From: Squalus acanthias
Lineage: Eukaryota
NCBI GenBank assembly: GCA_030390025.1
Contig: JASTWF010000033.1
Coordinates: forward strand, 3,288,001-3,352,000
DNA length: 64,000 nucleotides
Reading direction: 5' to 3'
The position numbers were made by a program, and so were the translations under genes. Shown here one piece after another: positions 3,957-35,390 of the stretch. The notes beneath the pieces are model-generated. The model searched no databases. It was not told where the DNA came from and saw only the letters and a program-made list of their open reading frames with translations. Each line of letters begins with the position of its first letter. The stretch's first letter is position 1.

Positions 3957-4016
<60 letters not shown>

Positions 4017-4053
4017 CAGATAGATAGATTGTTAGATCGATAAACAGACAGAC

Positions 4054-4105
<52 letters not shown>

Positions 4106-4173
4106 CGATAGATAGATAGATAGATAGATAGATAGACAGATAGATAGATTGATAGATCGATAAACAGACAGAC

Positions 4174-4257
<84 letters not shown>
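3957..4257. repeat. (GATA)n/(GACA)n microsatellite
   Basis: Direct tetranucleotide array with an internal ~120-bp higher-order duplication. Confidence 0.98.
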
Positions 4258-5021
4258 GGACAAACAGTGGATAGATATACTGACAGATAGACAGACAGGT
4301 AGTACATTTTGTATTGGTAATAGTGTAAGATCGGTTATGTAACACTGGCCTCCCATTATACACCTCTCACGAATTTACTTTACATTGATTTTAATGGATA
4401 GCGAAACCGAGTGGGGTTTTAGAAACATTTGCCCATTCGATATTGTCTGGTTTACTTCTTTGCTGAAAGTTAAAAGTTGCGCCAGTAATCAATGATTGAA
4501 ATCGGGCAGTGTGTAAAAGCCTCAGCCAATCCGCTATTGGCCATTTTTATCCGGGAGCAAAAGAGAATATTCCGTTATTATTGCCAATACTGATTTTTTT
4601 TAAGTTTCTCTCTCTTCCTCTCCAGAAGGTATTGTGTCCTTGATGAGTTTTCACAAGACAGCTATCTCATGTTCCACACATGATTACAGATGATTCTCCT
4701 TTGGTCCATTTTTCCACTGCCGTTTCACACCCCAGATGTTTCCTGTCCAGAAGGAGACGATTCAGCCTTCTCTCAGTCTCAGCTGGTTGCTGCAGTATTT
4801 CAAAAACGACTCCCCAGACCCACTCTCTCCTCATGACCCGGTGTCTTCCTCTGCTCCTTGTACTGTTCTCCTCTTTAGTTAGAAGTATATCCTCTAAGAG
4901 TGATTTACGCTGTCTCGAGTTCCGACCCATCACACGGCTGATGTTAATTTTGAAATATCTCATTGATGATTTTAATTCACTATTGAATCTCTGCCTCTGT
5001 ATCTAATTTCAGCTATCATTT

Positions 5022-5190
5022 GAAGCTAACCCGCCCGGCGGGAACCAGGCGAGTTCGGGCCGGAATCCGGTTTTACAGCCCGCCCGATTCGCTCTGCATT
5101 GACTTCAATGTTGCGGACCATTGGACCTTGAGTAAAACATGTGTCCGACTTGAACACACTCCATTCCCGCTGGTCGGGTTAGTTTAAATT
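5022..5190. mobile_element. Short palindromic MITE-like element
   Basis: gctaacccgcccggcgggaa pairs with ttcccgctggtcgggttagt around a central palindrome cattgacttcaatg. Related decayed copies may lie at ~3350-3580 and ~4340-4560. Confidence 0.5.
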
Positions 5191-5379
5191 CCGGGTTTAT
5201 ACAGGGCCTTGCTAGGTTTCGGTACCAGGGACCACTCTAAAATTACCGTTCATTAAGTTTGAGGCGAGGCAGCAGGTGTAAAATGTCATTCTGCCATGGC
5301 ACATAACGTGGCTGAACAATCCTTTTACTCGTCAAACATTCAAACAGACACTTTCCAGCAGAAGTCATTACACAGTGTA

Positions 5380-5590
5380 CAGGAGCAGGACCAAGGCGTA
5401 TACCCCACCGTATCCCAGGGTCACTGATCAGGAGCAGGACCAAGGCATATAACCCACCATATCCCAGGGTCACTGATCAGGAGCAGGACCAAGGCGATTA
5501 CCCCACCATATCCCAGGGTCACTGATCAGGAGCAGGACCAAGGCGTATACCCCACCACATCCCAGAGTTACTGATTATGAGCAGGAGTCA
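5380..5590. repeat. 49-bp minisatellite, ~4 copies; degenerate copies resume at ~6240-6420
   Basis: Unit caggagcaggaccaaggcgtataccccaccgtatcccagggtcactgat starts at 5380, 5429, 5478 and 5527. Confidence 0.9.
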
Positions 5591-6235
5591 TGTAAACAAT
5601 GGTCAACAGAAGAGGTGAGAGATAACATAAAGCTAATGGAAAGAACATACAAAAGTGAAAATAATAGTGTAGATCGAGGGAGCTGCCAGAGATAGAAAGA
5701 ACAGCAAAGGAAGACAACACAGATATTAAGAGCTGGAAAGAGGGAATACGAAAAGAAAATTGCGATGGATTTCAAGAGCAACACAAAAGGTTTTTACAAT
5801 TATATAAGAGAAAAAGTAGTCGGGGTAACGTAAGCAAGAAAACAGTATCAGCAAATATAATGGCACTGAAGACTGATAATCCCGAGAACCAGCTGGTTTC
5901 CACCCCACGGTTATAAAGAAAGTAGTGAGGAAATTGCAGATGGTTTAGCCGTAATCTTCCGAAGCTCTCTCGAGTCATGAATTGTCCCATTAGGTTGCAA
6001 ATGCAATTGTTATTTAGGAAAGGTGAGAGAGAAATACCAGGAAATTAAACACCAGATAGTCTAACATCTGTTTTGGGAAGTGATTCAGCTAAACTGAGCA
6101 TTTTTTGGGTATTAAGTTATACAGACACGAGGCAGATGAATGGAGTTTGGATACAGATAGCCCAGATCTCATTAAATGGCGGAACAGGCTCGATGGGCTG
6201 AATGGCACACTCCTGCTCCTAAGTTCATATGTGAC
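5590..6235 (+). mobile_element. Degenerate, internally deleted CR1-type LINE
   Basis: Shows CR1-like gaaaattgcgatgg...aaaggttttt and a 3' end aaatggcggaacaggctcgatgggctgaatggc...ctcctgctcct. Confidence 0.65.
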
Positions 6236-9200
6236 ATCCCAACAATACCCAGGGTCTCTGATCAGCATCAGGAGTCAGGGGATTACATACTCAGCATATC
6301 CCAGGGTCAGTGATCAGGAGCAGGACCAATGGGAGTTTCACCCTCAGCACATCCCAGAGTCACTGCTTAGGAGCTGGAACCAGGGGGATCAACCCCACCA
6401 TATCACAGGGTCATTGATTCCAATTGTAACTGACTAGGCCCAGATTCGACCGTGGGACCTTCTGTCAGCACCATCAGGTTTTGTTGGCACCAGTCAGTGT
6501 GTTTACTCTTTGTTCATTAGAGCAAACCACATTCTATTGTTGGACATTTCTGAATAAATATAACCGTGTTATTTTCATGTTTATTTATCCAATTTGATCA
6601 GACCTTGACTTCACAAATCATTACTGACAGTTGACTTGAAGTCTTAGTTCTAACATGAAGTTCTGTGACATCGGATTCCATCACGGGATTTGTGAGCTTT
6701 CAGTAAATTGCATCCATTCATCCACGACACTGATATTTCTGCTCCCATCCTGATGTATAATTTCCCTTTCCCCCCTCCCTTACAGTTAACTTAGTGACGA
6801 TTGTGATCCTGTCTCGGGGAAATTGTGGTTTCTCCAAATGTGTCACTCGGTACTTGGTGGCCATGGCAGCGGCGGATCTGCTGGTCATTATCATCGAACG
6901 ATACTGGGGCACATCCCCATTGTTTATTATACAAAGTTTGACTTTGTGAAAGACATTCCCGTGTGTAATATCCACGCAGTCCTACTTTATGCAGCCACAG
7001 ACTGTTCTGTCTGGTTCACTGTCACTTTCACCTTTGATCGATTTGTGGCCATTTGTTGCCAGAAGCTAAAAAAAAAAATTGCACCGAGAAATCGGCGGCG
7101 GTGGTTATTGGAACAATGACTGTGTTGTTCTGTGTGAAGAACATTTTCTGGTACTTTATGGTTAAAAGCACGTATGTGCTAATGAGAGTTCCCTGGTTCT
7201 GCGCTATGAAACTCAGTGTTATGCTTTCACCAGTATGGACAGCAATTGAATTTCTACTTTATATTTTCACCCCGTGTGTACCATTTATTCTAATTCTGAT
7301 GCTCAATGTTTTAACTGTCAGACACATTTTAGTGACCATCAGAATTCGGAAGAGACTTCGGGACCGGGTCAGTGGGGAGAGTCCCAGTGACCCAGAGTCT
7401 AAAAACAGAAGAAAATCAATTACTGTACTTTTTGTGATCTCGGGGAATTTTATCGTTCTATGGGCTGTGCTCCTGCTCAATACGATGTATACTAGAATTG
7501 TTCTGGTGAGCGAGTTCCCTATTGCTGAGCTCCCCAATATTGTACGAGAACTTGGGTTTATGCTCCAGCTCCTGAGTTGCTGCACAAACACTTTTATTTA
7601 TGCCGTGACCCAGAGTAAGTTCAGAGAGGAGCTGAAGAATGGGGAGAAATATCCCTTCACTGTACTTTCTAAGATTATAAAATAACGAGGAAAACGGAAG
7701 ATTTTCACACGTAGGCCACAATGTTGTTTCACACGGTATCCCACCCCCTCACCACCCGGTCTCTGTAAACCTGTTATTTTGAAGGCAAACCGAGCTGATT
7801 TGATTGAGATTGAATTTGATGCAAGGCGTGTTTTGTAAACTTGGAGCAGCTGCCGTGTGTGGAAAATCCTTTACTGTAATCACACATTTAAATAAAATTA
7901 AACTAACATGGAACAACTACCGTGACAATTGTTTATTGGGTTTTATTGCTGTCTGTGTTCATGGATTCGGCCGGACGGACTGTGATTCTATATAATGGAC
8001 TGTAACTGGGAAAAGATACAACACCAGTCGGCAATACCGCGAGTTCCCCTTTACAGAGACCATCTCCGGGTAGGTAACTGATTCCTGCAGTCCGACTGCT
8101 GAAATACAAGTTATTCTGAGTGTAACCTTCTTCATGAGGTGTATATGAGGAGTTATTTACCACTCGGCTGATGGATACTGCGCGCATTACAATGGTTACC
8201 TTTATAAAGCCTGGAATTTGAGGTGGTTAATGACGGCGAACAAACAACATTCGCTGTTATTACCCCTCTGAAGCTGACCGCAACTTCAGGATGCAGCGCA
8301 TGGGCATCGAAACACGGAAATCCTGAAGTTGCGGTCAGTCATTCACTGCTCCGACACTGGCTGCGCTGTGCCCCCGCCCCCACCCCCATAGCCGGCAATC
8401 AGTGGAATCAGGGAAATCAGTGAAACTGACCAAACTCGGGCTTTTCCCGGCAATATCGCTGTTAAATACCCCGTTAAATGCATTCGGTGTAACTGGGGTT
8501 TTAACAGCGAATTGACTGCTAAACAAGCGTTATGGCCCTGAATAAATATTTTTAATTTTGTGGAGTGTCAAATTTCTCCATTGTGATAAAATTAAGTTTA
8601 TTATAAACTTTAAACAAAATTATATTATTTTAAAGTTTGTTGATATTTATTTCAGGTTTATCTTTTCCCCATGTGAGATCCCCAATCTTTGATTTTCTCT
8701 CTATAACATTTTTTAAAAGTCTGATTAAACGCAACTTCTTCGCGTCCTGCTTCCTGTGAGAATTCTGCATTGTGCTGCACAGACTTTAAATTAATAAATC
8801 AGCGTCATTAACAAATATAATTAGTTGATGCTAAAGCCAAAAAAAAGTAGATATAATAAACAGGTAAGGATGAAATTGGTCCTGGACGGGACAGTAAAAC
8901 GGGCGATAGTGAATCGACAGCCTTTTTGTCGAGCCCAGGATTTTCTTTTCAATTCAACACGGTGCTCCACACGGGGTCTGACCAAGGCTCTGTATAACTG
9001 AAGCCTTATTTCCTCCTGTTCATATTTGAGTTCCCTTCAGATTTTATGTTTAATACCCTCAGGACACCTTGGGATTGGGAAAAAAATGATGCCTTGCCAG
9101 AGCTGCCCACAAAACAAGGAGCAACAATTGAAAAAACTAAATTAATAATTGAAAAAGTGAACATGACGTGGTGCAGATGAAATATAAGAAGTTAAGATTT

Positions 9201-17411: not shown

Positions 17412-18715
17412 GTAGAAAAACATGTGGAAACAGAAAACGTGATAAAGAATAGTCAGAACGGATTTCAAAAGGGAAGGTCATGCGTGACCAACCTTATTCA
17501 ATTCTGTGAAGTAGTAACAAAGAGAAGACAAGGACAATACAGTAGATGTAATAGATTTGGATTTTCAAAAGGCCTTCGATAAGGTACCGCATCGTAGACT
17601 CATGACTGTGGTCAGAGCATGTGGAGTCAGGGGACCGGTAGCAGAATGGATAGCGCGCTGGCTGCACAACAGAAAACAGAGAGTCGAGGTTAAGCTGGCA
17701 AATGTTGGGAAGTGGTTTTCCACAAGGATCGGTGCTGGGACCACTGTTCACAATTTACATCAATGATTTGGACTCGGGAATCAGAAATACAATTTCAAAA
17801 TTTGTGGATGACACCAAATTGGGGGAGTCGAGTTAATACTGAGAAAGACTGCGACAAAATACAAGAGAACATTAATAAACTCGCAGAATGGGCGTGTAAT
17901 TGGCAAATTAATTTCAATATCGATAAGTGAGAGATTTCACATTTTTATAGGAAGAATAAGGAGGCCACATACTGCTTGGAAATTAATAGTCTAACTGGGG
18001 CAGATGAGCAAAGGGATCTGGGGGTACAGATACTCAAATCACTAAAAGTAGCGACGCAGGTTAATAAGGCCATAAGAAAGCAAACCAAGCCCTTGAGTTC
18101 GTTTCTAAAGGGATGGAATTGAAAAGCAGACAAGGTTTGTTAAACTTGTATTGAACCTTGGTTAGACCACATTTAACTTTAATTTTCACAGTTCTGGTCT
18201 CCATATTATAAAAAGGATGGAGAGACACTGAAAAAGGTGCAAAAAAGATTTACAAAGATGATACCAAAACTGTGAGGTTATAATTATCAGGAAAGGCAGA
18301 ACAGGCCTCTAGAAAAGAGAAGGCTGAGGGGTGAGCTCAGAGTTCTGTAAGATTATGAAAGGGTTTGATAGTGTCGACGTGGAGAGATTCTTCCACTTGT
18401 GGGGAGAGGCCAAAACTAGGCTCCAGAAATACAAGCTGGCCATTAATAAATCCCACAGGGAATTCAGGAGAAACTTCTTTGCCCAGAGAGTGGTTAGAAT
18501 GTGGAACTTGCTACCACAAGGAGTAGTTGAGGCGAACAGCACAGGCGCGTTTGAGGGGAAGCTTGATAAGCACCTGAGGGTGAAAGGAATAGAAGGAGAT
18601 GCTGAAAGGTCAGGTGAAGAGGGCTGGGAGGAGGCTAGTGTCAATCACAAACACCGCTATAGACCAGAGGGACCCAATGGCCTGTTTCTGTGCTGTAAAT
18701 TCAATGTAATTCAGT
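17412..18715 (+). mobile_element. CR1-type LINE RT/3' end, frameshifted
   Basis: SQNGFQKGRSCVTNL, DFQKAFDKVPH and RRNFFAQRVVRMWNLLP. Confidence 0.9.
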
Positions 18716-18749
18716 GCAAAAGTGCGATAGGAATATATGACAATAGCTA

Positions 18750-19220
18750 TAATAAAAAAGACTTGCATTTCTATAGCGCCTTTCACGACCACCAGACGTC
18801 TCAAAGCGCTTTACAGCCAATGAAGTACTTTTGAAGTGGAGTCACTGTTGTAATGTGGGAAACACGGCAGCCAATTTGTGCACAGCAAGCTCCCACAAAC
18901 AGCAATGTGATAATGACCAGATAATCTGTTTTTGTTATGTTGGTTGAGGGATAAATATTGGCCAGGACACCGGGGATAACTCCCCTGCTCTTCTTCGAAA
19001 TAGTGCCATGGGATCTTTTACACCCACCTGAGAGCGCAGACGGGACCTCGGTTTAACGTCTCATCTGAAAGACGGCACCTCCGACAGTGTAGCACTCCCT
19101 CAGCACTGCACTGGAGTGTCAGCTTAGCTTTATGTGCTCAAGTCCCTGGATTTGGACTGTGAACCCACGACCTTCTGACTCAGAGGCGACTGTGCTACCC
19201 ACTGAGCCACAGCTGACACC
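18750..19220 (-). mobile_element. tRNA-headed DeuSINE (SacSINE1-like), near full length
   Basis: Minus strand shows an A-box head gtggctcagtgggtagc, a B-box-like gggttc, the Deu core gtaaaagatcccatggcactatttcgaagaagagcagggg...ccaatatttatccctc and an L2-like tail gtgaaaggcgctatagaaatgcaagt. Confidence 0.85.
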
Positions 19221-19559
19221 TCAACCTAATGACAATAGGGATATATTAAATATCCTCAATAAATCCAACATTAATTGACGACTGCGGCAATACTTCAGAC
19301 ATGTAATTGTTTGAATGTAACAAGAGTCTGTGTGTACAACAGAAAAGGCAGAGAGTTTGTGTGAGAGAGAAATGGGAAGACAATATTTGAGAGGGGAGGA
19401 GGGGACAAGAATGGACAGAGAGCCTGTGTGTAGGAGCAAAGGGAAAACAAGTCAGGATGTCTGAGAGGGGAGGTGGAAAATCGGAGTCTGTGTAAGAGAT
19501 GGGAGAGAGAATCTGTGTCTAAAAGAGGGGATGGAGAGCCTGATAGTGAGAGATACAGA

Positions 19560-21915
19560 GGTAGTCTCTGTGCGAGAGAGGGAGTGTGCGAGTGAGGGAG
19601 TGTGAGAGAGAGTGAGTGTGCGAGAGAGGGAGTGTGAAAGAGAGGGAGTGAGTGAAAGAGGGAGTGAGTGATAGAGGGAGTGAGTGAGAGAGGGTGAGTG
19701 TGAGAGAGGGCGAGTCCGTGAGAGTTAGCGAGTCCGTGATAAAGAGCGAGTCCGTGAGAGAGAGAGTGTGTGAGAGAGTGAGTCTGAGAGAGAGAGTGTG
19801 TGAGAGAGTGAGTCTGAGAGAGCCAGTGTGTGAGAGTGAATCTGAGGGAGACAATGTGTGAGCGAGAGTCTGAGAGAGACACTGTGTGAGAGAGAGTGTG
19901 TGAGAGAGAGTAAGTCTGAGAGAGACAGTGGGAGAGAGAGAGAGAGAGTCTGAGAGACAGTTTGAGAGAGAGTGAGCCTGAGAGAGAAAGTTTGAGAGAG
20001 AGGGTGTCTGAAAGAGACAGTGTGTGAGAGATAGCCTGAGACAGTGTGTGAGAGAGTGAGTCTGAGAGAGAGTGTGTGAGAGCGTGACTCTGAGAGACAG
20101 TGTGTGAGAGAGTGAGTCTGAGATACAGTTTGTGAGGGAGTGAGTCTGAGAGAGTTTGTGAGAGTGAGCGTCTGAGAGAGACATGTGTGAGAGAGTGAGT
20201 CTGAGAGAGACAGTGTGAGAGAGTGAGTCTGAGAGAGACAGTGTGTGAGAGAGTGAGTCTGAGAGAGACAGTGTGTGTGAGAGAGTAAGTCTGAGAGAGA
20301 CAGTGTGTGAGAGAGTGAGTCTGAGAGAGACAGTGTGTGAGAGAGTGAATCTGAGAGAGACAGTGTGTGAGAGAGTGAATATGAGAGAGACAGTGTGTGA
20401 GAGAGTGAGTCTGAGAGAGAAGGTGTCTGAGCGAGTGAGTCTGAGAGAGACAGTGTGTGAGAGAGTGAGTCTGAGAGAGAGTGTGTGAGAAGGGTGAGTC
20501 TGAGAGAGAGTGTGTGAGAGGGTGAGTCTTAGACAGACAGTGTGTGAGAGAGACAGTGTGAGAGTGATTCTGAGAGAGATGGTGTGTGAGAGAGTGAGTC
20601 TGAGAGAGACAGTGTGAGAGAGTCTGAGAGAGAGTGTGTGTGAGAGTGAGTCTGAGAGAGATGGTGGGTGAGAGAGTGAGTCTGACAGAGACAGTGTGTG
20701 AGAGAGAGAGTCTGAGAGAGACAATGTGAGAGTGTGAGTCTGAGAGAGACAGTGTGTGAGAGAGTGAGTCTGAGAGAGACAGTGTGAGAGAGTGAATCTG
20801 AGAGAGACAGTGTGTGAGAGTCTGAGAGAGAGTATGTGTGAGAGTGAGTCTGAGAGAGATGGTGGGTGAGAGAGTGAGTCTGAGAGAGACAGTGTGAGAG
20901 AGAGAGTCTGATAGAGACAGTATGTGAGAGAGTGAGTCTGAGAGAGACAGTGTGCGAGAGAGAGTCTGAGAGAGACAGTGTGTGAGGGAGTGTGTCTGAG
21001 AGATACAGTGTGTGAGAGTGAGTCTGAGAGAGATGGTGTGTGAGAGAGTGAGTCTGAGAGAGATGGTGTGTGAGAGAGTGAGTCTGAGAGAGACAATGTG
21101 TGAGAGAGTGAGTCTGAGAGAGACAATGTGTGAGAGAGAGTGAGTCTGAGAGAGACAGTTTGAGAGAGAGTGAGTCTGAGAGAGACAGTGTGTGAGAGAG
21201 TCTGAGAGAGACAGTGTGTGAGAGAGTGTGTGAGAGTGAGTCTGAGAGAGACAGTGTGTGCGAGAGTGAGTGTGAGAGAGAGACAGTGTTTGAGAGAGTG
21301 TATCTGAGAGTGTGAGAGCGAATCAGAGAGAGAGTGTGAGATACTGATTCTGAGAGAGACAGTGTGTGAGAAAGTGAGTCGGAGAGAGATAGTGTGAGAG
21401 TCTGAGAGAGACAGTGTGTGAGAGAGAGTCTGAGAGAGACAATGTGTGTGAGAGAGTGAGTCTGAGAGAGACAGTTTGAGAGAGAGTCTGAGAGAGACAG
21501 TGTGAGAGAGTCTGAGAGAGACAGTGTGTGAGAGAGTCTGAGAGAGATAGTGTGTTAGAGTCTGAGAGAGACAGTGTGTGTGAGAGAGTGAGTCTGAGAG
21601 AGACAGTGTGTGACAGTCTGAGAGAGACAGTGTGTGAGAGAGAGTGAATCTGAGAGAGACAGTTTGAGAGAGAGTCTGAGAGAGACAGTGTGAGAGAGTC
21701 TGAGAGAGACAGTGTGTGAGAGAGAGTTTGAGAGAGACAGTGTGAGAGAGTGAGTCTGAGAGAGACAGTATGTGAGAGAGAGTCTGAGAGAGAGAGAGTG
21801 TGTGAGAGAGTGAGTCTGAGAGAGACAGTGTGAGAGAGTGAGTCTGAGAGAGACGGTGTGTGAGAGAGTGAGACTCAGAGAGACAGTGTGAGAGAGAGTG
21901 AGACTCAGAGGCTGT
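19560..21915. repeat. Compound GA/GT minisatellite (~26-32-bp units, gagagagacagtgtgtgagagagtgagtct)
   Basis: ~2.3-kb direct array that accounts for the spurious S/H/L/T-rich ORFs. Confidence 0.95.
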
Positions 21916-22204
21916 GTGTGAGAATGAGCATGGGAATGAGGGAGGGTCGGAAAGGGAGGGAGCGAGTGAGAGAGGGAGAGAGAGAGAAGGTGTGCATACA
22001 AGAGTGAGAAGAACAGAGACTGTGGGCGACAAAGGGGAGAAACACTTTTTAACGATGAGGAGGGAGAAAAGGGGTAAAGAGACTGTTTGTACTCGAGAAC
22101 TGAGGGATAAAGAACATGAGAGGTTGGAAAGGAGAAAGAGAGAGAGCGAGAGTCAGAGAGAGCGAGAGAGAGAGAGAGACAGGATGGGTGAATCACAAAA
22201 AAAC

Positions 22205-23562: not shown

Positions 23563-25405
23563 GGTGTCGGCCTTGGCTCATTGGTAACTCTCGCTTCTAG
23601 AATCAGAAAGGTTGTGTGTTCAAGCCCCCCTCCAGAGAGTTAAGCACAAAATCCAGGCTGAAACTGCAATGGGGTGCTGAGGGAGTGCCGCACTGTCGCA
23701 GGTGCCGTCTTTTGGATGGGACGTTAACCCGAGGCCCTGTCTGCCCTCTCAGGTGGACGTAAAAGATCCCACGGCACTATTTCGAAGAAGAGTGGCCGAG
23801 TTCCCCCCGGTGTCCGGGGCCAATATTTCTCCCTTGACCAACATCACTGAAGCGATTATTTGGCCATTGGCCTCAGTGCTGTGTGTGGGATCTTGCTGTG
23901 TCCACAGTGCTGTTTGTGGGCTATTGCTGTGCCCACAGTGCTGTGGGTGGGATCTTGCTGTGTCCACAGTGCTGTGTGTGGGATCTTGCTGTGCCCACAG
24001 TGCTGTGTGTGGGATCTTGCTGTGTCCACAGTGCTGTGTGGGGGATCTTGCTGTGCCCACAGTGCTGTGTGTGGGATCTTGCTGTGTCCACAGTGCTGTG
24101 TGTGGGATCTTGCTGTGCCCACCGTGCTGTGTGTGCGATCTTGCTGTGCCCACAGTGCTGTGTGTGCGATCTTGCTGTGCCCACAGTGATGTGTGTGGGA
24201 TCTTGCTGTGCCCACAGTGCTGTGGGTGGGATCTTGCTGTGTCCACAGTGCTGTGTGTGGGATCTTGCTGTGCCCACAGTGCTGTGTGTGGGATCTTGCT
24301 GTGTCCACAGTGCTGTGTGTGGGTTCTTGCTGTGTCCACAGTGCTGTGTGTGGGATCTTGCTGTGTCCACAGTGCTGTTTGTAGAATATTGCTGTGTCCA
24401 CAGTGCTGTGTGTGGGATCTTGCTGTGCCCACAGTGCTGTGTGTGGGATCTTGCTGTACCCACCGTGCTGTGTGTGGGATCTTGCTGTGTCCACAGTACT
24501 GTGTGTGGGATATTGCTGTGTCCACAGTGCTGTGTATGGGATCTTGCTGTGTCCACAGTACTGTGTGTGGGATCTTGCTGTGCCCACAGTGATGTGTGTG
24601 GGATCTTGCTGTATCCACAGTGCTGTGTGTGGGATCTTCCTGTGTCCACAGTGCTGTGTGTGGGATCTTGCTGTGCCCACAGTGCTGTGTGTGGGATCTT
24701 GCTGTGCCCACAGTGCTGTGTGTGGGATCTTGCTGTGTCCACAGTACTGTGTGTGGGATCTTGCTGTGCCCACAGTGCTGTGTGTGGGATCTTGCTGTGT
24801 CTACAGTGCTGTGTGTGGGATCTTGCTGTGTCCACAGTGCTGTGTGTGGGATCTTGCTGTGCCCACATTGATGTGTGTGGGATCTTGCTGTGTCCACAGT
24901 GCTGTGTGTGGGATCTTGCTGTGTCCACAGTGCTGTGTGTGGGATCTTGCTGTGTCCACAGTGCTGTGTGTGGGTTCTTGCTGTGTCCACAGTGCTGTGT
25001 GTGGGATCTTGCTGTGCCCACAGTGCTGTGTGTGGGATCTTGCTGTGTCCACAGTGCTGTGTGTGGGATCTTGCTGTGCCCACAGTGCTGTGTGTGGGAT
25101 CTTGCTGTGCCCACAGTGCTGTGTGTGGGATCTTGCTGTGTCCACAGTGCTGTGTGTGGGATTCTGCTGTGCCCACAGTACTGTGTGTGGGATCTTGCTG
25201 TGTCCACAGTGCTGTGTGTGGGATCTTGCTGTGCCCACAGTGCTGTGTGTGGGATCTTGCTGTGTCCACAGTGCTGTGTGGGATCTTGCTGTGCTCACAG
25301 TGCCTGCCGCTTTTCTTGGAGTGAGCACCCTTCACAAGCCCCCAATTGTGTGTGAGGCTCTGGGCCGGGCTGAGGCTGTGAAAGGCGCTGGGGAAATGCA
25401 GGTTG
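23563..25405 (+). mobile_element. DeuSINE (SacSINE1-like) copy with an internal minisatellite expansion
   Basis: Head and Deu core at 23563-23870 match the SINE at 18750-19220; the SINE 3' end (gtgaaaggcgctggggaaatgcagg) resumes after 25300. Confidence 0.85.
23874..25302. repeat. 31-bp minisatellite, ~46 copies
   Basis: Unit cacagtgctgtgtgtgggatcttgctgtg(t/c)c with period 31 (e.g. gatc at 23951 and 23982). Confidence 0.97.
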
Positions 25406-25984: not shown

Positions 25985-26982
25985 AACAGCAGTGAACTTG
26001 GTCCCCTCATCTATGATTTGTGTGATGGGACCAAATGTAATATATACAAGTTTGCTGACGATACAAAGTTGGCTGAGAATGTCAGTTGTGAGGAGGATAC
26101 AAGGAGGCTTCAAGGGATATAGACGGGCTAAGTGAGTGGGCAAGAACATGGCAAATGGAATATAATGTAGAGAAATGTGAAGTTATCCACTTTGGTAGGA
26201 AAAGCAGAAAAGCAGATTATTTTTGAAATAATGAGAGACTGGGAAATGTTGGTGTTCAGAGGGACCTGGGTGTCCTTGTACACGAATCATTGAAAGTTAA
26301 CAAGCAGGTCCAGCAAGCAATTAGGAAAGCAAATGGTATGTTGGCCTTTATTACAAGTGGATTTGAGTATAAGAATAAAGACTTCTTACTGCAATTTTAT
26401 GGGGCCCTTGTGAGACCACACCTGGAGTATTGTGTACAGTTTTGGTCTCCTTATCTAAGGAAGGATATACTTGCCATAGATGGAGTGCAACGAAGGTTCA
26501 CCAGACTGGTTCCTGGGCTGGGTTGATTGTCCTATTAGGAGAGATTGAGTTGACTCGGCCTATATTCTCTAGAATTTATAAGAATGAGAGGTGATCTCAT
26601 TGAAACATACAACATTCTTACAGGGCTTGACAGGTTGGATGCAGGGATGATGTTTCTCCTGGCTGGGGAGTCTCGAACCAGGGCTAACAGTCTCAGAATA
26701 AGGGGTTGGCCATTTACTACTGAGATGAAAAGAAATTTCTTCACTCAAAGGGTGGTGAATCTTTGGAAGTCTCTACTCCAGAGGGCTGTGGAAGCTCAGT
26801 CCTGGAGTATATTGAAGACAGAGAACGATAGATTTTTCAATATTAAATGAATCAATTATGTTCTTATGATATGGGGATAGTGCAGGAAAGTGGAGATGAG
26901 GTAGAAGATCAGACATGATTGTATTGAATGAAGGAGCAGGTTTGGAGGACAAATGGACTACTCCTGCTTATGTTCTTATGTG
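25985..26982 (+). mobile_element. CR1-type LINE 3' fragment inserted in the tRNA-Phe flank
   Basis: LVRPHLEYCVQFWSP and RGDLIETYNIL with tail cttatgttcttatg. The flanks are nearly contiguous in the paralogue at ~36450. Confidence 0.9.
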
Positions 26983-27121: not shown

Positions 27122-28315
27122 CTTATGTGAGCGGTTCGAATCGACCAACACCCCTCCGGTTCCTAGACTTTGGGCTTATTTAGGGGTTGTGAACAAAATT
27201 GCAGTAAACAGGTTCTGATGAAAGAAATTTACTTTATTAAAAGAAAAAGGTAACAAACTTGAAACACACTTATTACTTAAACACAGATTCGGGGAACACA
27301 CGGTACAAGCGAGGGAGAATGACAATATATCAAACAAAACCTTATCCCTCCCAAAGATCACACTATCTGGCTAGGTTTTTGGTTTCAGGAGATATGGGAT
27401 AATGCTCACCAACGAATCCTTGACAGGATTTTAGAGTCTTTTGTTTAAAAGACTCTGTAAGGCCCTTGTTGCTGCGAGGTGTCCGATGGTCACTGAGGCA
27501 GTCGCTCTGGTTTCTTCTTGCGTGCTGGTTTGTTTTCTGGCCTTCTTCCTCGTGGCTTGTGGTAGGTTTTGCTGGAGCAGGGAGAGAGCTGTGTCCGCGT
27601 GGTCAGCCAGTCCGAAAGAGAGAGAAATTATGGCACAGGCTTTCAAATTATACTGTTTCTTTTTCGCGCCCAAAAAACCCTTATTAAAACGGATTCCTTT
27701 TGGTTGCAAATGAACCTTGCTTAGTCCAATTGTCTAGTTTTGGCGGGCTTGCCAGTTCCGATGGCTTTTGCTCAGTGTTAAACATGGCTTGATCGTTTTC
27801 CGATTTAAACACAGCCTTATCTACGCGCCAAATCTCCCCATATTGTCCCAGGTCTTTTGGCGGGCTTTTAAATCTGTTCTGTGGATACCTGGTTGATTGG
27901 GTTTTTTTTTGATGTGATAATGGCTATGAAACTGTGTGCTGGAAGTTTTATTGTCAGGATTCGATTTTAGTTTTCCAGCATCTTGTTTGCCCCTGGGGAT
28001 TCATATTTGAATGTGTTTGTGAGTTTTTGCTTTGTCTCTTGCACCTGGGTAGGATTTGTAGTGTAAACAATTCCCAGACAGGTGATTTGTTCACTGCCTG
28101 GCCACGCCCCTCACAGCTTGTGTCTGTGAAAGGTGTCTCTCCCAACAGTAAGATTGAAAAAGTCAGTTTCCTCAGGTTTTTTCTTCCCAGTTCTTTAGGT
28201 TTTTACATCAAATCACTTCACTTAGGCCCCATCATCCCAAGTTTGTATGAAAAGTCCAAAAATCACTCCCTTTAGGGCTCTGTTCGAGTTTCTGGGGGAT
28301 TTTGCGAAGCCTACA
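27122..28315 (-). repeat. 3' LTR, lacking the terminal 12 bp of U5
   Basis: Begins TGTAGG on the minus strand right after the PPT and matches 34197-35390. Confidence 0.95.
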
Positions 28316-28326
28316 TCCCCCACTTT
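28316..28326 (-). other. Polypurine tract
   Basis: Minus-strand AAAGTGGGGGA directly abuts the TG of the 3' LTR. Confidence 0.85.
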
Positions 28327-28611
28327 GATACTAAAACTGAATTAGTATCATTAACAGGTGAGCAAAATTTCCGATCCCCGAAAACCAACCTTCCCCTGTA
28401 TTACCTAAACTAAAAACCCAAACATACATTCCCCTTTTGAAAGTGATGTTTCAGGTACATACAGGTAAGAATCAATCTTTATTTCACCTCCAAGCACGGA
28501 GAGGGTCCGACACCCCTTCACAGCTTGGAAAAACACATCATACACATCATAAAAATGACACAACACACATACAAATTTTTCTATTAAAAGATAAAAAATT
28601 CAAGGTTTGTT

Positions 28612-30953
28612 CTATCCCTGGCCATAGCCTTTATTTTGATGCATTTCCCAAGTCCCTTCGTGTCTGGAGCGGAGCTCCCCGTCCCTTCCCCTGCACCTTG
28701 TACACAGCAGGTAGAGAACTATCCCGAGCTGGCAGACCACCAAAAGAAGGGAAGCCATCTTGCTCCAGGAAGGCACCTCTATATTCTCGAAAATATCCCA
28801 CCAGGGTGGAACTACTATATCCAAAATCTCTGCCCCTATTTCAACTGTTTTCTTTTCCAGGGTGTAGAAATGTTTTTGTGAAATCTCTACAGCTTTAAGT
28901 AGGATGGTAAGATGTTCGGGTAGAGGGGGAATTTTATTTCCAAAGTAAGTCACATACTTTTACAGGTTGGTGATGTTTTCTGTTACAGTGAGGTGAACAG
29001 TGGAGGGTTCAGGAATGGGGACAATCCGTTCCTGGGCCACTTGAACTTCTGCCTCGGGTTTAAAGCAGAAACTGCTGTCACTTACCAGACACCAGAAGTG
29101 TCCATGCTGGTAGTGGGACGCACCCGTGGTGACAAAATATGTCCCACCCCCAATATATGCTACCTGTGGGGAAACATGGCCGTGTGCCATCACCTCCATG
29201 GTACAATTGATAGGTCGTGCGCCAGCAGCTCTGAACCCGCATTGTGGTTTCGAACAGGCGTTCAAGTGCTGGGGACACAGTATTATGTGTGAATCCCGGC
29301 TCCGGCACCCAGAGAGGTCAGTACTTGTCATGGCGTGCTCCCACTTTATGACATAAGGTGGGACCGCTGTAAAAATGATGTGTGCACCCCCTTGAATGAC
29401 TCCAATGTTCTCCACCCTGTATACCGGTACGGGTCGGGCTGTCCCACTCATGACCGGCATTCTCACTACTATCCCCATGATATTGTGAATTGAACGCCCA
29501 CAATCCATTGGGACAGGGTAGGCTTCAGAGGCTAGACGAAATTGGCATGGGCTCAGCGAATTACTAAACGGGTGGAGGGCTGCGAGGTGCTTGTTGCTGA
29601 TCCAGGAGGGGACTAAACCTTGCTTTAAATTCTCCAGGTTGCTACGGCCCTCGCCCAGCAACCATGCCCCGTACAGCACACACACCTCATTCTGTGCAGC
29701 CTGATCCGATGCATTCCTATCCTCCCGTATGAGTGCATTTACTGTTTTGGCATGCCTTTCCAGTTCTGCAATAATTTCCTTTAAATGAACCATCATAGCT
29801 TGGTCGTCATGTAGCTCTGAGCCTACCACTGTGTTTCCATCCTTCAGGATCTTTCTTAACTGGGTTTTTAAAACATTTATCTGTGTCTGTAATTCCATGT
29901 CCTCCAGGCTATTTATTACATAGGACCCTGTACTATAGGCAGTGAAGACATCATTGCAGGCTCCCCTTCTTTGTCTACCCGTGCCCATAGGGTTCTCAGG
30001 GTGTATTCTGTATAGCTCTACTTTGTCTATATTGGCAAAATCAAATTTGTAAAATTTCCTAAACATTTCCTTTAGCAGGGCCTGGTACAGCTACTCCGTT
30101 TCCTTAGGACACCACTCAGGTAAGTATACCTCGGTAAGGTTTAATATTACTGAAGCTACTGCATAGTGTACCCCCTGGTATAGCACCTTTTCGGTTGGTA
30201 CTAGGACTAACCCATTCCCTCGTCCCTTGGTGGTGATAGGGCACTTTTCTTCCAGGGTTTTCGGTACCTGGGTCGTGGGTAGGGGCTTTCGGGTGTGTGC
30301 CACGAGTTCAGTGGCATTAACTGGGACCGGAATGTGTGGGACCACGCAACCATGCAGGCTAGAATCCCACCCTATCCCCTCCCCGGCATCTTGCCATTGG
30401 CTGGAGAAGATGATGGATACCCCTGTGGGGCAGGCTTCCTCTGATCCCCACATATAAACATAGACTCCCTGTTCGGACCCCCACCACTTATCCCAACAAA
30501 CACTAACTCCTCCTTGGTCCCTGTGATTGTCCGGTGGGTGTCGTTCCCTAATCTTTCCCAGTCGGCTGTATGGTCCCCTGCTTCCCTGCTCAGCTTCCTG
30601 AGTCAACACCACCTATTCAAGGGAATTCGTCCCTTACAGGTAAGGCACACACGCTTCCGCTCGGTGACACTGACCCTTGTGGCAACGACCTGTATTCTGG
30701 GGCATGGGAGGGATGCCTCCCCGTACGTGAACCCGGGCTGGTTGGAGTATTTAGTAGAGTTGGACCCCAGCCACCCTGGCCACCTTCCCTCGTGGAAGTA
30801 GATGGCGAGCTCCACCACTCCCCGCTCGCCACCCCCTGCGGTGACGACTGGTGCTCTCACTCCTGAGCACCCATAGATGTGGGAGTCCTCCACGTCACCT
30901 CGGTCACCGATGCTCACCCCTACCAGGGCGAGCAGGTGCAGAAACCTTGTCAT
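28612..30953 (-). pseudogene. env: env: ~780-aa F-like class I fusion glycoprotein, three stops and one frameshift
   Basis: Signal peptide MTRFLHLLALVGVSIG, RQRR|G cleavage site (~29965-29976), heptad region, Cys-rich TDLSGC...ILCP region, second heptad and TM MASLLLVVCQLGIVLYLLC. ORFs 30091-30612, 28960-30066 and 28612-28953 are in one frame; the upstream ORF stops at 30603. Confidence 0.85.
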
Positions 30954-31155
30954 CCCGAAGTCCTTTCTGTAGGGGCACATACAAAACATATATCCATGTC
31001 CCAGAAAGGTTGTCTGGCTGGATAATTAATCAAGCCCTTAAACTTAAATAAAACACTACAAACAACTAAACTAATGATAACCATAACCACCAAAACTGCA
31101 ATTACTTAAAACCGCAAAATTCTGTACATTTGCCGCCCGTCTCCGGACGGCCAGG

Positions 31156-32364
31156 TTAAATCCTGTTTAGTCTCTGCCTTATGTGGCCTCTGGATGGCTT
31201 GAACACCTGGGTGTAGAGCGGCCTGTACCGCCGGACCCAGAAGGCCTTCCTCAAAACCGCTGGGGGTATCTTAACATCCCAGCTGAGTCCTGTGCTGCAG
31301 CACACAACCCCCTTTGGTGTGGCTGCAGCGCCCTCGTTCATATCTGTGGGCTCCTCCCAGCCTGAGGCTGCAGGCAGGGGACCCTTCTCTCTCTCTTCTC
31401 CCAGTACTACCTCTACTGTGAAACCCTCACTGTTGGAGGCTGTAGGCTGGGAATCCCCAACTTTAGATCGCTCCCTGCTCTTGGGTGCTCTTTTTCGGGT
31501 TGTAACCCTCTTTGGGTGGGACCCTCTAAACAGATACACCTGTGGCCACAGTAGCCTTTGCTGTGGTGTGCGGGGAGACCTTATTAGGGCTCTGGCAACT
31601 GGGGGTGTGCTTGAGTCCCACATAATCGGTGGAGTGACCTCTCCTGTAAGACAACACACTGTCCCTCCCGCTGCAGCTTGTGCGTCAGCCACAGTTGTGG
31701 CTGGCTGCGGATTTCTAACTTGGGAGCAGTCCAGCTTTGCCGGCTGTTCCCTTTTAGGTTTAAACAGTTTGCACTGGTCAATCTCCCACCCGTGGATTCT
31801 CTGGGGTTCTAACAGCAGCCGATTTTTCTGGTGCTGGCTCCCCAGGCTACTGGCTGCCTGCCAGTGATTCTGTTTAAAAATCTCGTCCTCTACCCTGAAC
31901 GGACCTTCTAGGGACTCCCCACTGTCTCTCTCTACCAGGCCGGCTTTAAAGACGGGATTCTGGGCTTGGACCTGCTTTATGTCCGGGGGCAAAGCTACCC
32001 CCTGTGTGCCTCCCTTGTCTCGGATTGCAGCTACCGGACCTGCTTTATAGGGATCCCATAACTCTCCTTCCCTGGCCCCCTGCTTGGCAAACTTGTTGGC
32101 CTTTTGGTTAACCTGCCACGTGGTATGGAGGGATCCTAAATCTATGTCCAAAGGTTTGGACATTGCCCCAGCCTGCTTGTTCTCTTTGATTCCCATTAAA
32201 CTGTAGGGGACCCCGTTAAACCTGGGTGAATTGTTCAGGTCTTCTGAATGGAACACCGTGTTGGCCGCTCCGGTGTCCACTAAACATCTCCCCTTCACTT
32301 TCTCCACCCCCTTCTTAACATCGTATCCCGGGGAACACAGGCAGAAAGGCTGCGCTGGTTCCAG
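31156..32364 (-). CDS. pol: Protease / RNase H tail / integrase tail fusion (internally deleted Pol), open frame
   Basis: CLVDTGA (aspartic protease) is followed directly by NQKANKFAKQGA (RNase H N..AD.LAK-like), then DIKQVQAQNP, GPFRV and WEIDQCKLF (IN C-terminus). No YxDD RT motif and no DDE core. Confidence 0.75.
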   Translation of the reverse strand: MEPAQPFCLCSPGYDVKKGVEKVKGRCLVDTGAANTVFHSEDLNNSPRFNGVPYSLMGIKENKQAGAMSKPLDIDLGSLHTTWQVNQKANKFAKQGAREGELWDPYKAGPVAAIRDKGGTQGVALPPDIKQVQAQNPVFKAGLVERDSGESLEGPFRVEDEIFKQNHWQAASSLGSQHQKNRLLLEPQRIHGWEIDQCKLFKPKREQPAKLDCSQVRNPQPATTVADAQAAAGGTVCCLTGEVTPPIMWDSSTPPVARALIRSPRTPQQRLLWPQVYLFRGSHPKRVTTRKRAPKSRERSKVGDSQPTASNSEGFTVEVVLGEEREKGPLPAASGWEEPTDMNEGAAATPKGVVCCSTGLSWDVKIPPAVLRKAFWVRRYRPLYTQVFKPSRGHIRQRLNRI

Positions 32365-34182
32365 TCATAGGTCTGCGTTAGGGGGGGCAGATGGGATTAA
32401 TACACCAGTAGCTACCTTCCCTGGGCCATCAAACAGGACTCTGATGGCCGCTACTATTGTGTCCAGTGTGGGGGAAGAGGTCGGTGCCTCTACTTTTGGG
32501 GCAAAAGCTGGGGAATTCTTTGTTAGCATATCCTTCCAGGGATTCCTACAGTCCTTTCTCCAGTGCCCCCTCTTCCCGCACCCGAAGCAGTTACGCTTCA
32601 TGTCGGAAGATTTACCACCTTCCTGGTGCCACTCCTTCTTATCCTGACTGGGCTTTATCTCATGCACCTTCCCTTTCAGTGGGGTGTCTTCAGCTCCCCT
32701 ACAGTTCCGGTAGGCTAGGTTCATTTGCCTGACCACTGCCTCCTCGATAACCCGGGGATCTCTTGGGTCAAACCAAAGCTCAGCCTTGGCTTTTACTCGT
32801 GGCAAGCTGTTTGCCACTAGGCTACGGAGCCAGTAGGCCAGCTCGTCCCTGTTCAGGTTAGCCCTGTCGAGAGCCCCATTACAAGCACCCCTGTAGACCG
32901 GCCACAGTCTGTCTGCGAAAGCCTGTGGTGTCTCCCCTGCGAGCTGCACTGTTTTCTCCACCCGGGAGAAAGGACTTCCCTCATTCATTCTCATGGCCTC
33001 TAAAACTTCCTCCCTGAGGGCAGCATAACCGGTCTGTCCTCTCTTGCTCTCAGTAGAGAGTGACTGGTACAATTTGCCATCCAATGAGAACAGGAGCAAT
33101 TTTGCCATTTCGGCATCGTCACAATCGTTAATGGCTGCTGATTGTTCCACCTCCATGAAGTGGACTGAGGGGTCTTTCTTTTGGGTAAGTTTACTCAGGT
33201 GGCTTACCATAGCCCTAAACTGTTATGTACGTTGGGGAGCCAAGAATTGACTTTCAAGGGGTCCCTGACCTCCACCACCGGCGGGCGGGCAGAATTTTTA
33301 CTGACGTGCTGGGCACATTGGCCCTGGCTCTGACTTCTCCTGCATCGGTTCGCCCCCCTCTCCCTGCTGCCAAACCGAGTCAAAACTCGGCGCCACAGGT
33401 GCTGGTGTGCACTCCCTGTCAGCCTCACAGATTGTCTGCACCTCCTGCTGCCTAACCAAGCTTCTCCTTGGCGCCACAGGTGGTGGTCGAACAGTCTCCC
33501 CCTGCTCTTCCAGGTCTGTCCGGGCCGCACCTGGGCTTATCAGGCACAGCATGCCTTTTGTTTTGGACAGAGCAAGGTTCAGACTCTCAATCTGCTTCTG
33601 ACAGGGGCCGTGGTCCCCTACCTCAAACTCCCTTGTACTGGCTACTCTGTAGGCTGCCTGAACATGGTTTAACTTCTCTGTCAGTTCCCTTAATTGATTG
33701 TCAAGGCGGGTGTTCTCTTCCCTCAATGCCAGTTCACTACTTTTGGCCTCGGTGGCCTGACACTGGAGGTATCCCTTACTGGCACGGTGTTCATCCAGCA
33801 TCTGTGACTGTTCGTGATCTTTTGTGCCGAGCTCTGCTAAAAACCTATCCCCTGCTATAGCTCTGGCACGGGACAGTTGGATTTCTTCCTTTAGCTCTTC
33901 TGTGAGAGCCTGAATGCGCTTCCCCATAAGTTGCATTTGTTTCTGGGAGCAGAACAACCATATGGCTTTCTCCACAGACTTATTGTATTCCTTGCTCTCA
34001 GTCCATGCAGCTGCAGCGTCCATAGGACGTTCAGCATGCAACAGCCTGAGGACCCATTTCTTGGTGATATTTGCTTTTTTATATACATAGGATGACATCC
34101 TCTCTTCCATTTTTGTTCTCACCTCAAAACCAGCATTTACTGCTTCACAACCCTTTCGCCAAAGTCCTGCCATGGTCGCCAT
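32365..34182 (-). pseudogene. gag: gag: coiled-coil N-terminus, capsid-like region and CCHC knuckle; two in-frame stops
   Basis: ORFs 33298-34182 and 32365-33210 share a frame (TAA at 33298 and ~33223). CFGCGKRGHWRKDC lies at ~32549-32590, and there are long heptad-rich segments. Confidence 0.85.
34164..34181 (-). other. Primer-binding site complementary to tRNA-Arg(UCG)
   Basis: TGGCGACCATGGCAGGAC lies 3 nt after the LTR-terminal CA. It matches 16/18 to the complement of the vertebrate tRNA-Arg(UCG) 3' end as recalled (GTCCTGCCGCGGTCG-CCA). Confidence 0.8.
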
Positions 34183-34184
34183 TA

Positions 34185-35390
34185 TGTAAGGGGTATCTTA
34201 TGTGAGCGGTTCGAATCGACCAACACCCCTCCGGTTCCTAGACTTTGGGCTTATTTAGGGGTTGTGAACAAAATTGCAGTAAACAGGTTCTGATGAAAGA
34301 AATTTACTTTATTAAAAGAAAAAGGTAACAAACTTGAAACACACTTATTACTTAAACACAGATTCGGGGAACACACGGTACAAGCGAGGGAGAATGACAA
34401 TATATCAAACAAAACCTTATCCCTCCCAAAGATCACACTATCTGGCTAGGTTTTTGGTTTCAGGAGATATGGGATAATGCTCACCAACGAATCCTTGACA
34501 GGATTTTAGAGTCTTTTGTTTAAAAGACTCTGTAAGGCCCTTGTTGCTGCGAGGTGTCCGATGGTCACTGAGGCAGTCGCTCTGGTTTCTTCTTGCGTGC
34601 TGGTTTGTTTTCTGGCCTTCTTCCTCGTGGCTTGTGGTAGGTTTTGCTGGAGCAGGGAGAGAGCTGTGTCCGCGTGGTCAGCCAGTCCGAAAGAGAGAGA
34701 AATTATGGCACAGGCTTTCAAATTATACTGTTTCTTTTTCGCGCCCAAAAAACCCTTATTAAAACGGATTCCTTTTGGTTGCAAATGAACCTTGCTTAGT
34801 CCAATTGTCTAGTTTTGGCGGGCTTGCCAGTTCCAATGGCTTTTGCTCAGTGTTAAGCATGTCTTGATCGTTTTCCGATTTAAACACAGCCTTATCTACG
34901 CGCCAAATCTCCCCCTATTGTCCTAGGTCTTTTGGCGGGCTTTTAAATCTGTTCTGTGGATACCTGGTTGACTGTTTTTTTTTGATGGGATAATGGCTGT
35001 GAAACTGTGTGCTGGAAGTTTTATTGTCAGGAATCGTTTTTAGATTTCCAGCATCTTGTTTGCCCCTGGGGATTCATATTTGAATGTGGTTGTGAGTTTT
35101 TGCTTTGTCTCTTGCACCTTGGTAGGATTTGTAGTGTAAACAAATCCCAGACAGTTTGCTCTTTTCACTGCCTGGCCACGCCCCTCGCATCTTGTGTCCA
35201 TGAAATGTGTCTCTCCCAACAGTAAGATTCAAAAAGTCAGTTTCCTCAGGTTTTTTTCTTCCCAGTTCTTTAGGTTTTTACATCAAATCACTTCACTTAG
35301 GCCCCATCATCCCAAGTTTGTATGTAAAGTCCAAAAATCACTTCCTTTAGGGCTCTGTTCGAGTTTCTGGGGGATTTTGCGAAGCCTACA
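34185..35390 (-). repeat. 5' LTR (1206 bp)
   Basis: Minus-strand termini TGTAGG...CTTACA, TATAA at ~34723-34727 and AATAAA at 34308-34313. Confidence 0.95.

Follow-up and report, generated by a model that had tools for sequence, protein, structure and literature searches.

We analyzed a 64,000-nucleotide stretch of the Squalus acanthias genome (GenBank assembly GCA_030390025.1, contig JASTWF010000033.1, positions 3,288,001 to 3,352,000 of the forward strand; hereafter the window), which carries a provirus on the minus strand at 27122-35390. An earlier note, made from the sequence alone, had proposed that this element is a lokiretrovirus of a cartilaginous fish or a close relative. Our analysis retains most of the anatomy described there and leads to a different placement: we consider it likely that the locus holds a copy, defective and non-autonomous, of an endogenous retrovirus (ERV) family that is young and very abundant in a cartilaginous-fish-like genome, and that this family belongs to a deep lineage with an LPQG-type reverse transcriptase (RT) and an F-type envelope glycoprotein (Env), not to the lokiretroviruses. 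The features of the locus, with the evidence for each, are as follows.

34185..35390, minus strand: 5' long terminal repeat (LTR), 1206 nt, with TG...CA ends and AATAAA ~100 nt before its end (repeat pair and full-length copies)
34164..34181, minus strand: primer binding site (PBS) for tRNA-Arg(TCG), TGGCGACCATGGCAGGAC, 16 of 18 bases matching, overlapped by the gag ATG at 34182-34180
32365..34182, minus strand: gag, ~610 codons (open reading frames, Pfam, and a single-frame tblastn match to another copy)
31156..32364, minus strand: pol remnant, an open reading frame (ORF) of 402 aa (BLASTP against pieces of full-length Pol)
28612..31025, minus strand: env, 808 codons in intact relatives (ORFs, tblastn with an intact relative, family alignment and fold)
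28316..28326, minus strand: polypurine tract AAAGTGGGGGA, directly adjoining the 3' LTR
27122..28315, minus strand: 3' LTR without its last 12 nt (repeat pair, alignment and full-length copies)
32959..45040, no strand assigned: repeated block of at least 12 kb, comprising the 5' part of the provirus and its upstream flank (shared 5' flank, blastn of L087-L092)

The proviral outline was recovered by a repeat search of the window, which returned a pair of direct repeats of ~1.2 kb at 27122-28315 and 34197-35390, and every long ORF between the two lies on the minus strand. Comparison with full-length copies from the same genome placed the real inner end of the 5' LTR at 34185 (...CTTACA), 12 nt further inward; since the LTR of full-length copies ends at this later point, the 3' LTR of the window copy is short by 12 nt. 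Both LTRs start with TG, and the end of the 5' LTR is followed, as the same comparison indicates, by TAA and then the 18-nt PBS. Immediately before the 3' LTR, at 28326-28316, lies the polypurine tract, which is found ahead of the 3' LTR at 7 further loci as well. In these respects the layout given in the earlier note, with its 1.2-kb LTRs and polypurine tract, was borne out. By pairwise alignment the two LTRs are 97.8% alike over 1192 aligned bases, and the 26 substitutions and 4 gap columns that separate them all fall inside the first 558 nt, the other 616 aligned bases being identical. The LTRs are thus mosaic, for which reason their divergence was not used for dating. No target-site duplication was found at the flanks of the window copy.

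The surroundings of the provirus are also repeated. Its 5' flank is common to five other loci, and in a blastn comparison of L087-L092 with the window the interval 32959-45040 recurred at 96-98% identity on 3 other contigs. This block joins the 5' 2.4 kb of the provirus to at least 9.6 kb of upstream flank, and the homology ends inside gag, at 32959, so that the copy number of the family stems partly from segmental duplication (or from uncollapsed assembly copies). Taken together, the mosaic LTRs, the short 3' LTR, the missing target duplication and the segmental repeat suggest a rearranged or recombinant locus.

The PBS pairs at 16 of 18 positions with the 3' end of a host tRNA-Arg(TCG) gene to which CCA is added, and a full-length copy in L021 matches the same tRNA at 17 of 18. 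Host tRNA genes were sought with a pattern composed of the PBS complement and the tRNA T-arm, which matched at 614 places; ARAGORN called the pattern matches in L083 and L084 as tRNA-Arg(TCG), in line with the tRNA-Arg primer named in the earlier note, and called no tRNA at the spots of the exact pattern matches in L081 and L082. The matches to the 3' end of tRNA-Arg(TCG) occur by the hundreds on contig C26 of G000, at ~38.99-42.22 Mb (for example in L084-L086), with a spacing of ~1623 bp; this stretch is a large tandem array of tRNA genes, and L084 additionally carries a tRNA-Ser. We also observed that the gag ATG overlaps the first bases of the PBS, both in the window (34182-34164) and in L021 (~4105-4125). 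There is consequently no leader between PBS and gag, and any packaging or splice signals would lie in R-U5 or within gag.

The gag gene occupies one frame of ~610 codons closed by a natural TGA at 32365-32367, and in the window copy it is broken by two premature in-frame stops (33298-33300 and 33223-33225). Its N-terminal half appears helix-rich as judged from the residues and is followed by a capsid-like part and by the single CCHC knuckle that the earlier note had pointed out, CFGCGKRGHWRKDC, at 32545-32592. The Pfam model zf-CCHC matched this knuckle with E = 0.0013, its 19.1 bits falling short of the cut-off of 20.8; this was the only Pfam match among all ORFs of the window, and the Atlas neighbours of Gag fall in Retrotrans_gag, Ty3_capsid and zf-CCHC clusters. 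Beyond the TGA the gag frame continues into the open frame of 402 aa, which a BLASTP comparison with full-length Pol resolved into three pieces: residues 1-83 correspond to the N-terminal part of the protease (49% identity) with its DTG at 32277-32269, residues 84-162 to the end of RNase H and a linker (43% identity), and residues 163-367 to the C-terminal tail of integrase (IN; 71% identity, with a 47-aa gap). The DTG protease of the earlier note is therefore present, but reduced to its first 83 residues. By the same comparison, and with no Pfam match for the 402-aa ORF, the window copy lacks RT, the tether, the RNase H core and the IN core, as the earlier note had implied in looking for pol elsewhere. 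The env gene is spread over two frames, with a frameshift between 30546 and 30513, and carries two further in-frame stops (30091-30093 and 28960-28962). The window copy is dead and cannot replicate.

To place the family we relied on its other members in the host assembly, which amounts to 3.7 Gb; the counts that follow are lower bounds on matches and not copy numbers. The LTR query gave 3372 first-look candidates and 40 scored matches, all of them 93-100% identical. Corresponding figures were 8950 candidates and 109 scored matches (67-100%) for the 402-aa remnant, 9088 and 109 (89-100%) for env, and 18104 and 114 (89-100%) for RT, where RT-bearing copies hold open frames of up to 1496 aa. Ten loci were fetched, picked for long open frames. 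Eight of the 10 contain an env ORF of 808-832 aa, two of which (L019 and L020) also contain pol, and the search for a pol-complete copy that the earlier note had recommended succeeded in L019-L023, which encode RT, tether, RNase H and IN. These copies align with the window element at element positions 1-3056 and 3613-8269, and between the aligned parts they hold ~3.6 kb, as against 557 nt in the window copy. Pfam identified RVT_1 (5.8e-35), Integrase_H2C2 (1.4e-18) and rve (3.1e-17) in their Pol, and RT_RNaseH_2 (1.8e-20; the tether, also matched by RT_RNaseH) as well as RNase_H (8.4e-21) in that of L020. The family thus has a dual RNase H (tether plus RNase H), a trait common to all retroviruses and hence no discriminator for lokiretroviruses. 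At the gag/pol junction the pol-complete copies show one in-frame stop with pol in the same frame, the arrangement also seen in the loci of murine leukemia virus (MLV), walleye dermal sarcoma virus (WDSV) and snakehead retrovirus (SnRV), and different from that of the foamy locus L050, in which pol overlaps gag in another frame. One full-length copy is flanked by a 4-bp target duplication, AGAC.

Several further observations concern the make-up of the family. A second subfamily, represented by L014, L017 and L018, shares 80% (gag) to 91% (env) DNA identity with the window type; the N-terminus of its env (826-832 aa) is different, and its pol remnant is shorter still (252-303 aa). In the pol-complete copy of L021 an ORF for a long interspersed nuclear element (LINE) reverse transcriptase is inserted in gag, at 4838-5740. 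Words near-identical to the element occur in the sequencing runs X1-X20, filed under seven coded organisms, at shares of 0.11-0.41, so that close relatives of the family exist in several taxa. Contigs from 3 sequencing runs, taken to be RNA by guess only, span the element and showed no clear splice joint.

Next, we turned to Env, which in the family comprises a signal peptide, a surface part, an RQRR cleavage site (29965-29976 in the window), an F-like fusion subunit and a membrane anchor (~28702-28758). Reading of the family alignment found neither a CX6CC motif nor an adjacent CC pair anywhere in the aligned Env, and no Pfam family of retroviral Env, TLV_coat included, matched the window ORFs or the intact protein; the absence of the gamma/beta-retroviral signature asserted in the earlier note thus stands. 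The intact 808-aa Env had no Pfam match up to E = 0.1, Fusion_gly (PF00523) included, and neither PF00523 nor the foamy Env families were among the best 25 of 47 families for 42 Env relatives (E up to ~0.12). Pfam gave weak hints of Ig_3 (E = 0.085) and V-set (E = 0.045), and for one Env relative, P0153, a Baculo_F match of E = 0.0011 that lies below the cut-off and serves as a hint only. A single Env sequence found no match among the sequences of the Protein Data Bank (PDB), and a word-index search for relatives returned only 3 proteins. A profile search of 1.84 billion representatives was more productive, with 53 homologues; 10 were looked up and 9 could be named, all 9 from sharks (Mustelus, Chiloscyllium, Scyliorhinus, Heterodontus) or anurans (Pelodytes, Mantella, Bombina, Xenopus tropicalis). 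The nearest named relatives of Env and IN come from sharks, a skate and a sawshark, the last two via the word-index search; going by these names, the host looks chondrichthyan. The 42-row alignment presents, in order, a conserved R-x-K/R-R, a Gly/Ser/Thr-rich stretch, a long helix, a Cys-rich beta region, a second helix and the membrane anchor.

Compared with solved structures, the Env profile matched foamy virus gp130 best (8rm1_D, E = 0.0029; 8rm0_A, E = 0.015), with henipavirus F at E = 1.3. A first structural model, built from a 6-row alignment, was unusable (predicted local distance difference test, pLDDT, of 29.2) and was dropped; an AlphaFold model of residues 240-808 reached a pLDDT of 73.4. 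All rows listed by Foldseek for this core were paramyxo- or pneumovirus F proteins, led by 1ztm (human parainfluenza virus 3 F; E = 1.4e-10 over 502 columns). In a VIA-align comparison with 48,161 chains, the 16 best rows were likewise all F proteins or foamy Env, with Z = 10.8 for the F protein of Newcastle disease virus (NDV), 8.5 for the foamy prefusion Env 8rm0 (rmsd 5.5 over 269 residues) and 8.1 for 8rm1. The language-model (Atlas) neighbours of Env carry Fusion_gly and Baculo_F. These matches place Env among the F-type class I fusion proteins, and the modelled fold agrees with the kinship to Mononegavirales fusion proteins mentioned in the earlier note. It shares with paramyxo- and pneumovirus F the fold of the cleaved fusion subunit and of ~100 residues before the cut, together with the order of furin-type site, fusion-peptide-like Gly/Ser/Thr-rich stretch, long helix, beta-rich domains, second helix and anchor. 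It differs in that sequence identity amounts to only 8-16%, in an extra N-terminal head of ~240 residues, and in being encoded by a reverse-transcribing element. F-type envelopes were known before in two retroviral groups, by sequence in lokiretroviruses (2020, PMC7947760) and by structure in foamy viruses (2024, PMC11468914, where the link to F proteins is the title finding); these papers, and PMC5512871 and the BHIKHARI preprint below, are cited from excerpts.

The family RT carries the motifs LPQGF and QYVDDLLL. Its nearest named Pol proteins (42-47% identity) are annotated as 'NYNRIN-like' or 'GIN1-like' models from Rhinophrynus, Pyxicephalus, Aquarana, Xenopus tropicalis and Latimeria, and they differ from the published lokiretrovirus and coelacanth foamy sequences of those species. 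A possible identity of P0007, P0010 and the family RT with the published Loki-Lch and Loki-Xtr was rejected, as the peptides were unmatched in the excerpted supplement of PMC7947760. For phylogenetic analysis, a killifish protein retrieved by IN search (P0210) served as the lokiretroviral reference, its RT being near-identical in long stretches to a lokiretrovirus row in the excerpts of PMC7947760. SnRV (L024) and WDSV (L037) were identified by RT identity to rows of the same source, and the foamy references L050 and L064 were recognized from their ORFs. Near-duplicate MLV-like loci, partial RT domains and at least half of the Gypsy matches, including the longest branches, were left out, and the 50-row set also omits several class I rows. 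Scans of viral contigs for class II, ERV-L or more distant references yielded only gamma, epsilon, SnRV and two foamy genomes.

In the resulting careful tree of 50 rows, Gypsy lies outside P0210, which in turn lies outside a clade of 36 rows supported at 100/98 that takes in the family and all sampled canonical retroviruses. Within these 36 rows a turtle-containing group is basal, and the next node (96/90) unites the family, its anuran and coelacanth relatives and a clade supported at 98/97. The last divides into foamy viruses plus a fish group (the P0012 group; 90/85) and SnRV plus epsilon- and gammaretroviruses (89/85), and the family falls outside it. Membership in Gypsy or in the epsilonretroviruses, either of which the earlier note had named as fatal to its proposal, was thus not observed. 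The approximately unbiased (AU) test rejected a joint clade of the family and the lokiretrovirus (p = 0.0018). Judged by RT sequence, the family appears to sit between lokiretroviruses and the clade of foamy viruses, SnRV, epsilon- and gammaretroviruses. The best reading of the tree is that its lineage, shared with anurans and coelacanth, would have branched off after the lokiretroviruses and before foamy viruses split from SnRV, epsilon- and gammaretroviruses.

IN was compared by phmmer bit score. The family IN scored 275-308 bits against its own clade, 254-285 against two neighbouring deep groups and 235.6 against P0210, compared with at most 187 for class I, 132 for SnRV and 101-110 for foamy viruses. 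This pattern fits either a lineage close to the lokiretroviral split or a replacement of IN in the crown, an event that the excerpts of PMC7947760 propose for the retroviral crown.

These data allow the competing placements to be weighed. A true lokiretrovirus, in other words a chondrichthyan representative of the clade that Wang and Han described in 2020, would account for the F-type Env, the dual RNase H within an LTR-gag-pol-env layout, the deep RT position and an IN most like that of its own clade and, past the neighbouring deep groups, that of P0210. It would also account for the helix-rich Gag N-terminus, which recurs, along with a glycine-rich C-terminus, in the Gag of lokiretroviruses and zebrafish BHIKHARI (BHIKHARI preprint, excerpts). 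According to the excerpts of PMC7947760, lokiretroviruses are by RT the sister group of all other retroviruses, their Env resembles PF00523 (E = 2.2e-7), and their IN is tied to CGIN1/NYNRIN rather than to other retroviral INs. The membership suggested in the earlier note is nevertheless unsupported on several counts. The 100/98 branch parts the single lokiretroviral row from the family and the AU test agrees; the family RT reads LPQGF where all 5 lokiretrovirus rows seen in the alignments of PMC7947760 read PFGY; and its Gag has a CCHC knuckle and a junction with an in-frame stop suited to readthrough, in place of the glycine-rich lokiretroviral Gag. Moreover, the PF00523 match reported for lokiretroviral Env is without counterpart in the family at the thresholds given above. 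The hosts differ as well: the family is found in sharks, anurans and coelacanth, and none of its 9 named Env relatives (of 53) is from a ray-finned fish, where lokiretroviruses abound, whereas none of the 6 chondrichthyan genomes surveyed in 2020 yielded a lokiretrovirus (PMC7947760, supplementary Fig. S1). We regard a true lokiretrovirus as scarcely credible; that the family is a close relative of lokiretroviruses, and possibly an undescribed one, is possible.

A basal foamy-like ERV, sister to foamy viruses and allied to the foamy-like ERVs (FLERVs) or to the endogenous foamy viruses of cartilaginous fishes, is a more substantial competitor, which we nonetheless consider unlikely. Such a cartilaginous-fish virus was reportedly described by Wang, Chen and Cui in 2023 (J Virol). 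Foamy gp130 is the best solved sequence relative of Env, its structures 8RM0/8RM1 (PMC11468914) share the F-like fusion subunit and are among the fold matches, the foamy PR-RT comes close to MLV RT in a PDB search with the family RT (187 and 193.6 bits, the latter the top score), and one copy has a 4-bp duplication. The combination of shark and Xenopus hosts is likewise that of the shark and frog FLERVs of Aiewsakun and Katzourakis 2017, among which XtrFLERV and the shark CmiFLERVs form a cluster that is basal in the foamy-like clade (PMC5512871, excerpts). However, the best tree joins foamy viruses to the P0012 fish group within the 98/97 clade, without the family. The family further departs from foamy viruses by its CCHC Gag, by a pol that follows one gag stop in frame, by a tRNA-Arg PBS in place of the tRNA-Lys PBS that the excerpts of PMC5512871 give for FLERVs, by the lack of any foamy Env family among the Pfam matches listed and of accessory ORFs between env and LTR in the copies read, and by an IN for which the foamy proteins score lowest of the retroviral INs compared. 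A class I retrovirus, whether epsilon-, gamma- or SnRV-like, whose env had been swapped for an F-type one would explain the gag-stop-pol layout, the 4-bp duplication and the LPQGF/YVDDLLL motifs. It would also fit the findings that MLV RT is the top solved match and that SnRV outranks the other viral contigs (33% identity, E = 7e-85). The PBS of SnRV also corresponds to tRNA-Arg. The RNase H domain alone does not discriminate (38.1 bits for MLV-type, 37.7 for 2lsn 'RNase H' and 33 for foamy PR-RT chains). Against a class I origin, the family RT lies outside the common 98/97 clade, Env is not of the gamma type, and IN is of another type, with at most 187 bits to class I as opposed to 254-308 to its own and the neighbouring deep groups. 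RT and Env relatives also have the same shark/anuran spread, which argues for a long common history over a recent env swap, and we judge this origin very improbable. The deep, non-lokiretroviral placement that we favor has its own difficulties. The AU test keeps a joint clade of the family and foamy viruses (p = 0.117, for a group named after the first tree had been seen), and foamy viruses sit on a long branch (1.6). The wider clade of the family is a three-way grade without resolved order in the 50-row tree and is supported at only 86/83 in a 55-row tree. The tree includes a single lokiretrovirus, recognized by likeness and not by label, and is without class II retroviruses, ERV-L, the published shark and frog FLERVs and the endogenous foamy viruses of cartilaginous fishes. 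IN is nearer to P0210 than to the INs of class I, SnRV and foamy viruses, and a quick IN tree leaves the lokiretrovirus unseparated among the deep groups. As to Env, the gp130 sequence match is marginal, the confidence of the model is middling and the TM-scores are low (0.36/0.46), the last being expected where pre- and post-fusion forms are mixed.

Judging from full-length relatives in the genome, an intact virus of this family would prime reverse transcription with tRNA-Arg(TCG), start Gag at an ATG overlapping the primer site and produce Gag-Pro-Pol by readthrough of a single in-frame stop. Its Pol would supply protease, RT, tether (a degenerate RNase H), RNase H and IN, and the provirus would be integrated with a 4-bp target duplication. 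Entry would depend on an F-type class I glycoprotein with signal peptide, variable head, furin-type RQRR cut and fusion subunit. In-frame deletions have removed RT, half of the protease and the cores of RNase H and IN from the window copy. Such pol-deleted copies could have spread only with proteins from pol-complete relatives. Alongside the observed anatomy, breaks, copy structure, fold and tree position, we infer readthrough, cleavage, fusion activity and trans-mobilisation for the family. Its Env type and the apparent helix-rich Gag N-terminus recall both lokiretroviruses and foamy viruses (BHIKHARI preprint, excerpts, and reading of the sequence), while the CCHC knuckle and the readthrough layout recall orthoretroviruses. 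The family possibly corresponds to a little-described shark/frog "foamy-like" group.

Outside the provirus, three neighbouring stretches of the window stood out. Just beyond the 3' LTR, two plus-strand open frames at 26227-26850 carry motifs from the tail of LINE-type reverse transcriptases (e.g., RPHLEYCVQFWSP) and probably represent an old non-LTR retrotransposon fragment. At 24000-25200, some 2 kb from the provirus, a 31-bp unit is tandemly repeated in an array that may begin before 24000 (at least 37 copies, 92-96% identity, GC 56%). At 18001-22000 the G-over-C skew is very strong, with values of 0.33 and 0.73 in two 2-kb bins, and is accompanied by an A-over-T skew; this suggests simple or satellite-like sequence with strand asymmetry.

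Taken alone, the locus is an unremarkable dead copy, and its interest lies in the family that it led to. Tentatively, as a possibility we put below even chance, the family may represent a third deep lineage of retroviruses, with sharks, anurans and coelacanth as its hosts, between lokiretroviruses and the crown of foamy viruses and orthoretroviruses. Such a lineage would have kept the F-type Env, the helix-rich Gag N-terminus and a lokiretrovirus-type IN, with the orthoretroviral CCHC Gag and Gag-Pol readthrough already present. If this is true, the three deepest branches (lokiretroviruses, the family's lineage and foamy viruses) would all have an F-type Env; it would follow that retroviruses ancestrally had an F-type glycoprotein as their envelope, which gamma-type and other Envs replaced later. 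The family adds a lineage that combines an F-type Env with an orthoretrovirus-like gag-pol, at the node between the lokiretroviral and foamy groups, so that the question of the first retroviral envelope becomes testable with real sequences. It also provides an unusual case of a pol-deleted, env-retaining derivative at high copy number. Deep-branching retroviruses with an F-type Env are thereby extended to cartilaginous fishes. The young copies, numbering in the thousands, and the many long frames that are still open may point to very recent activity of the lineage in elasmobranchs.

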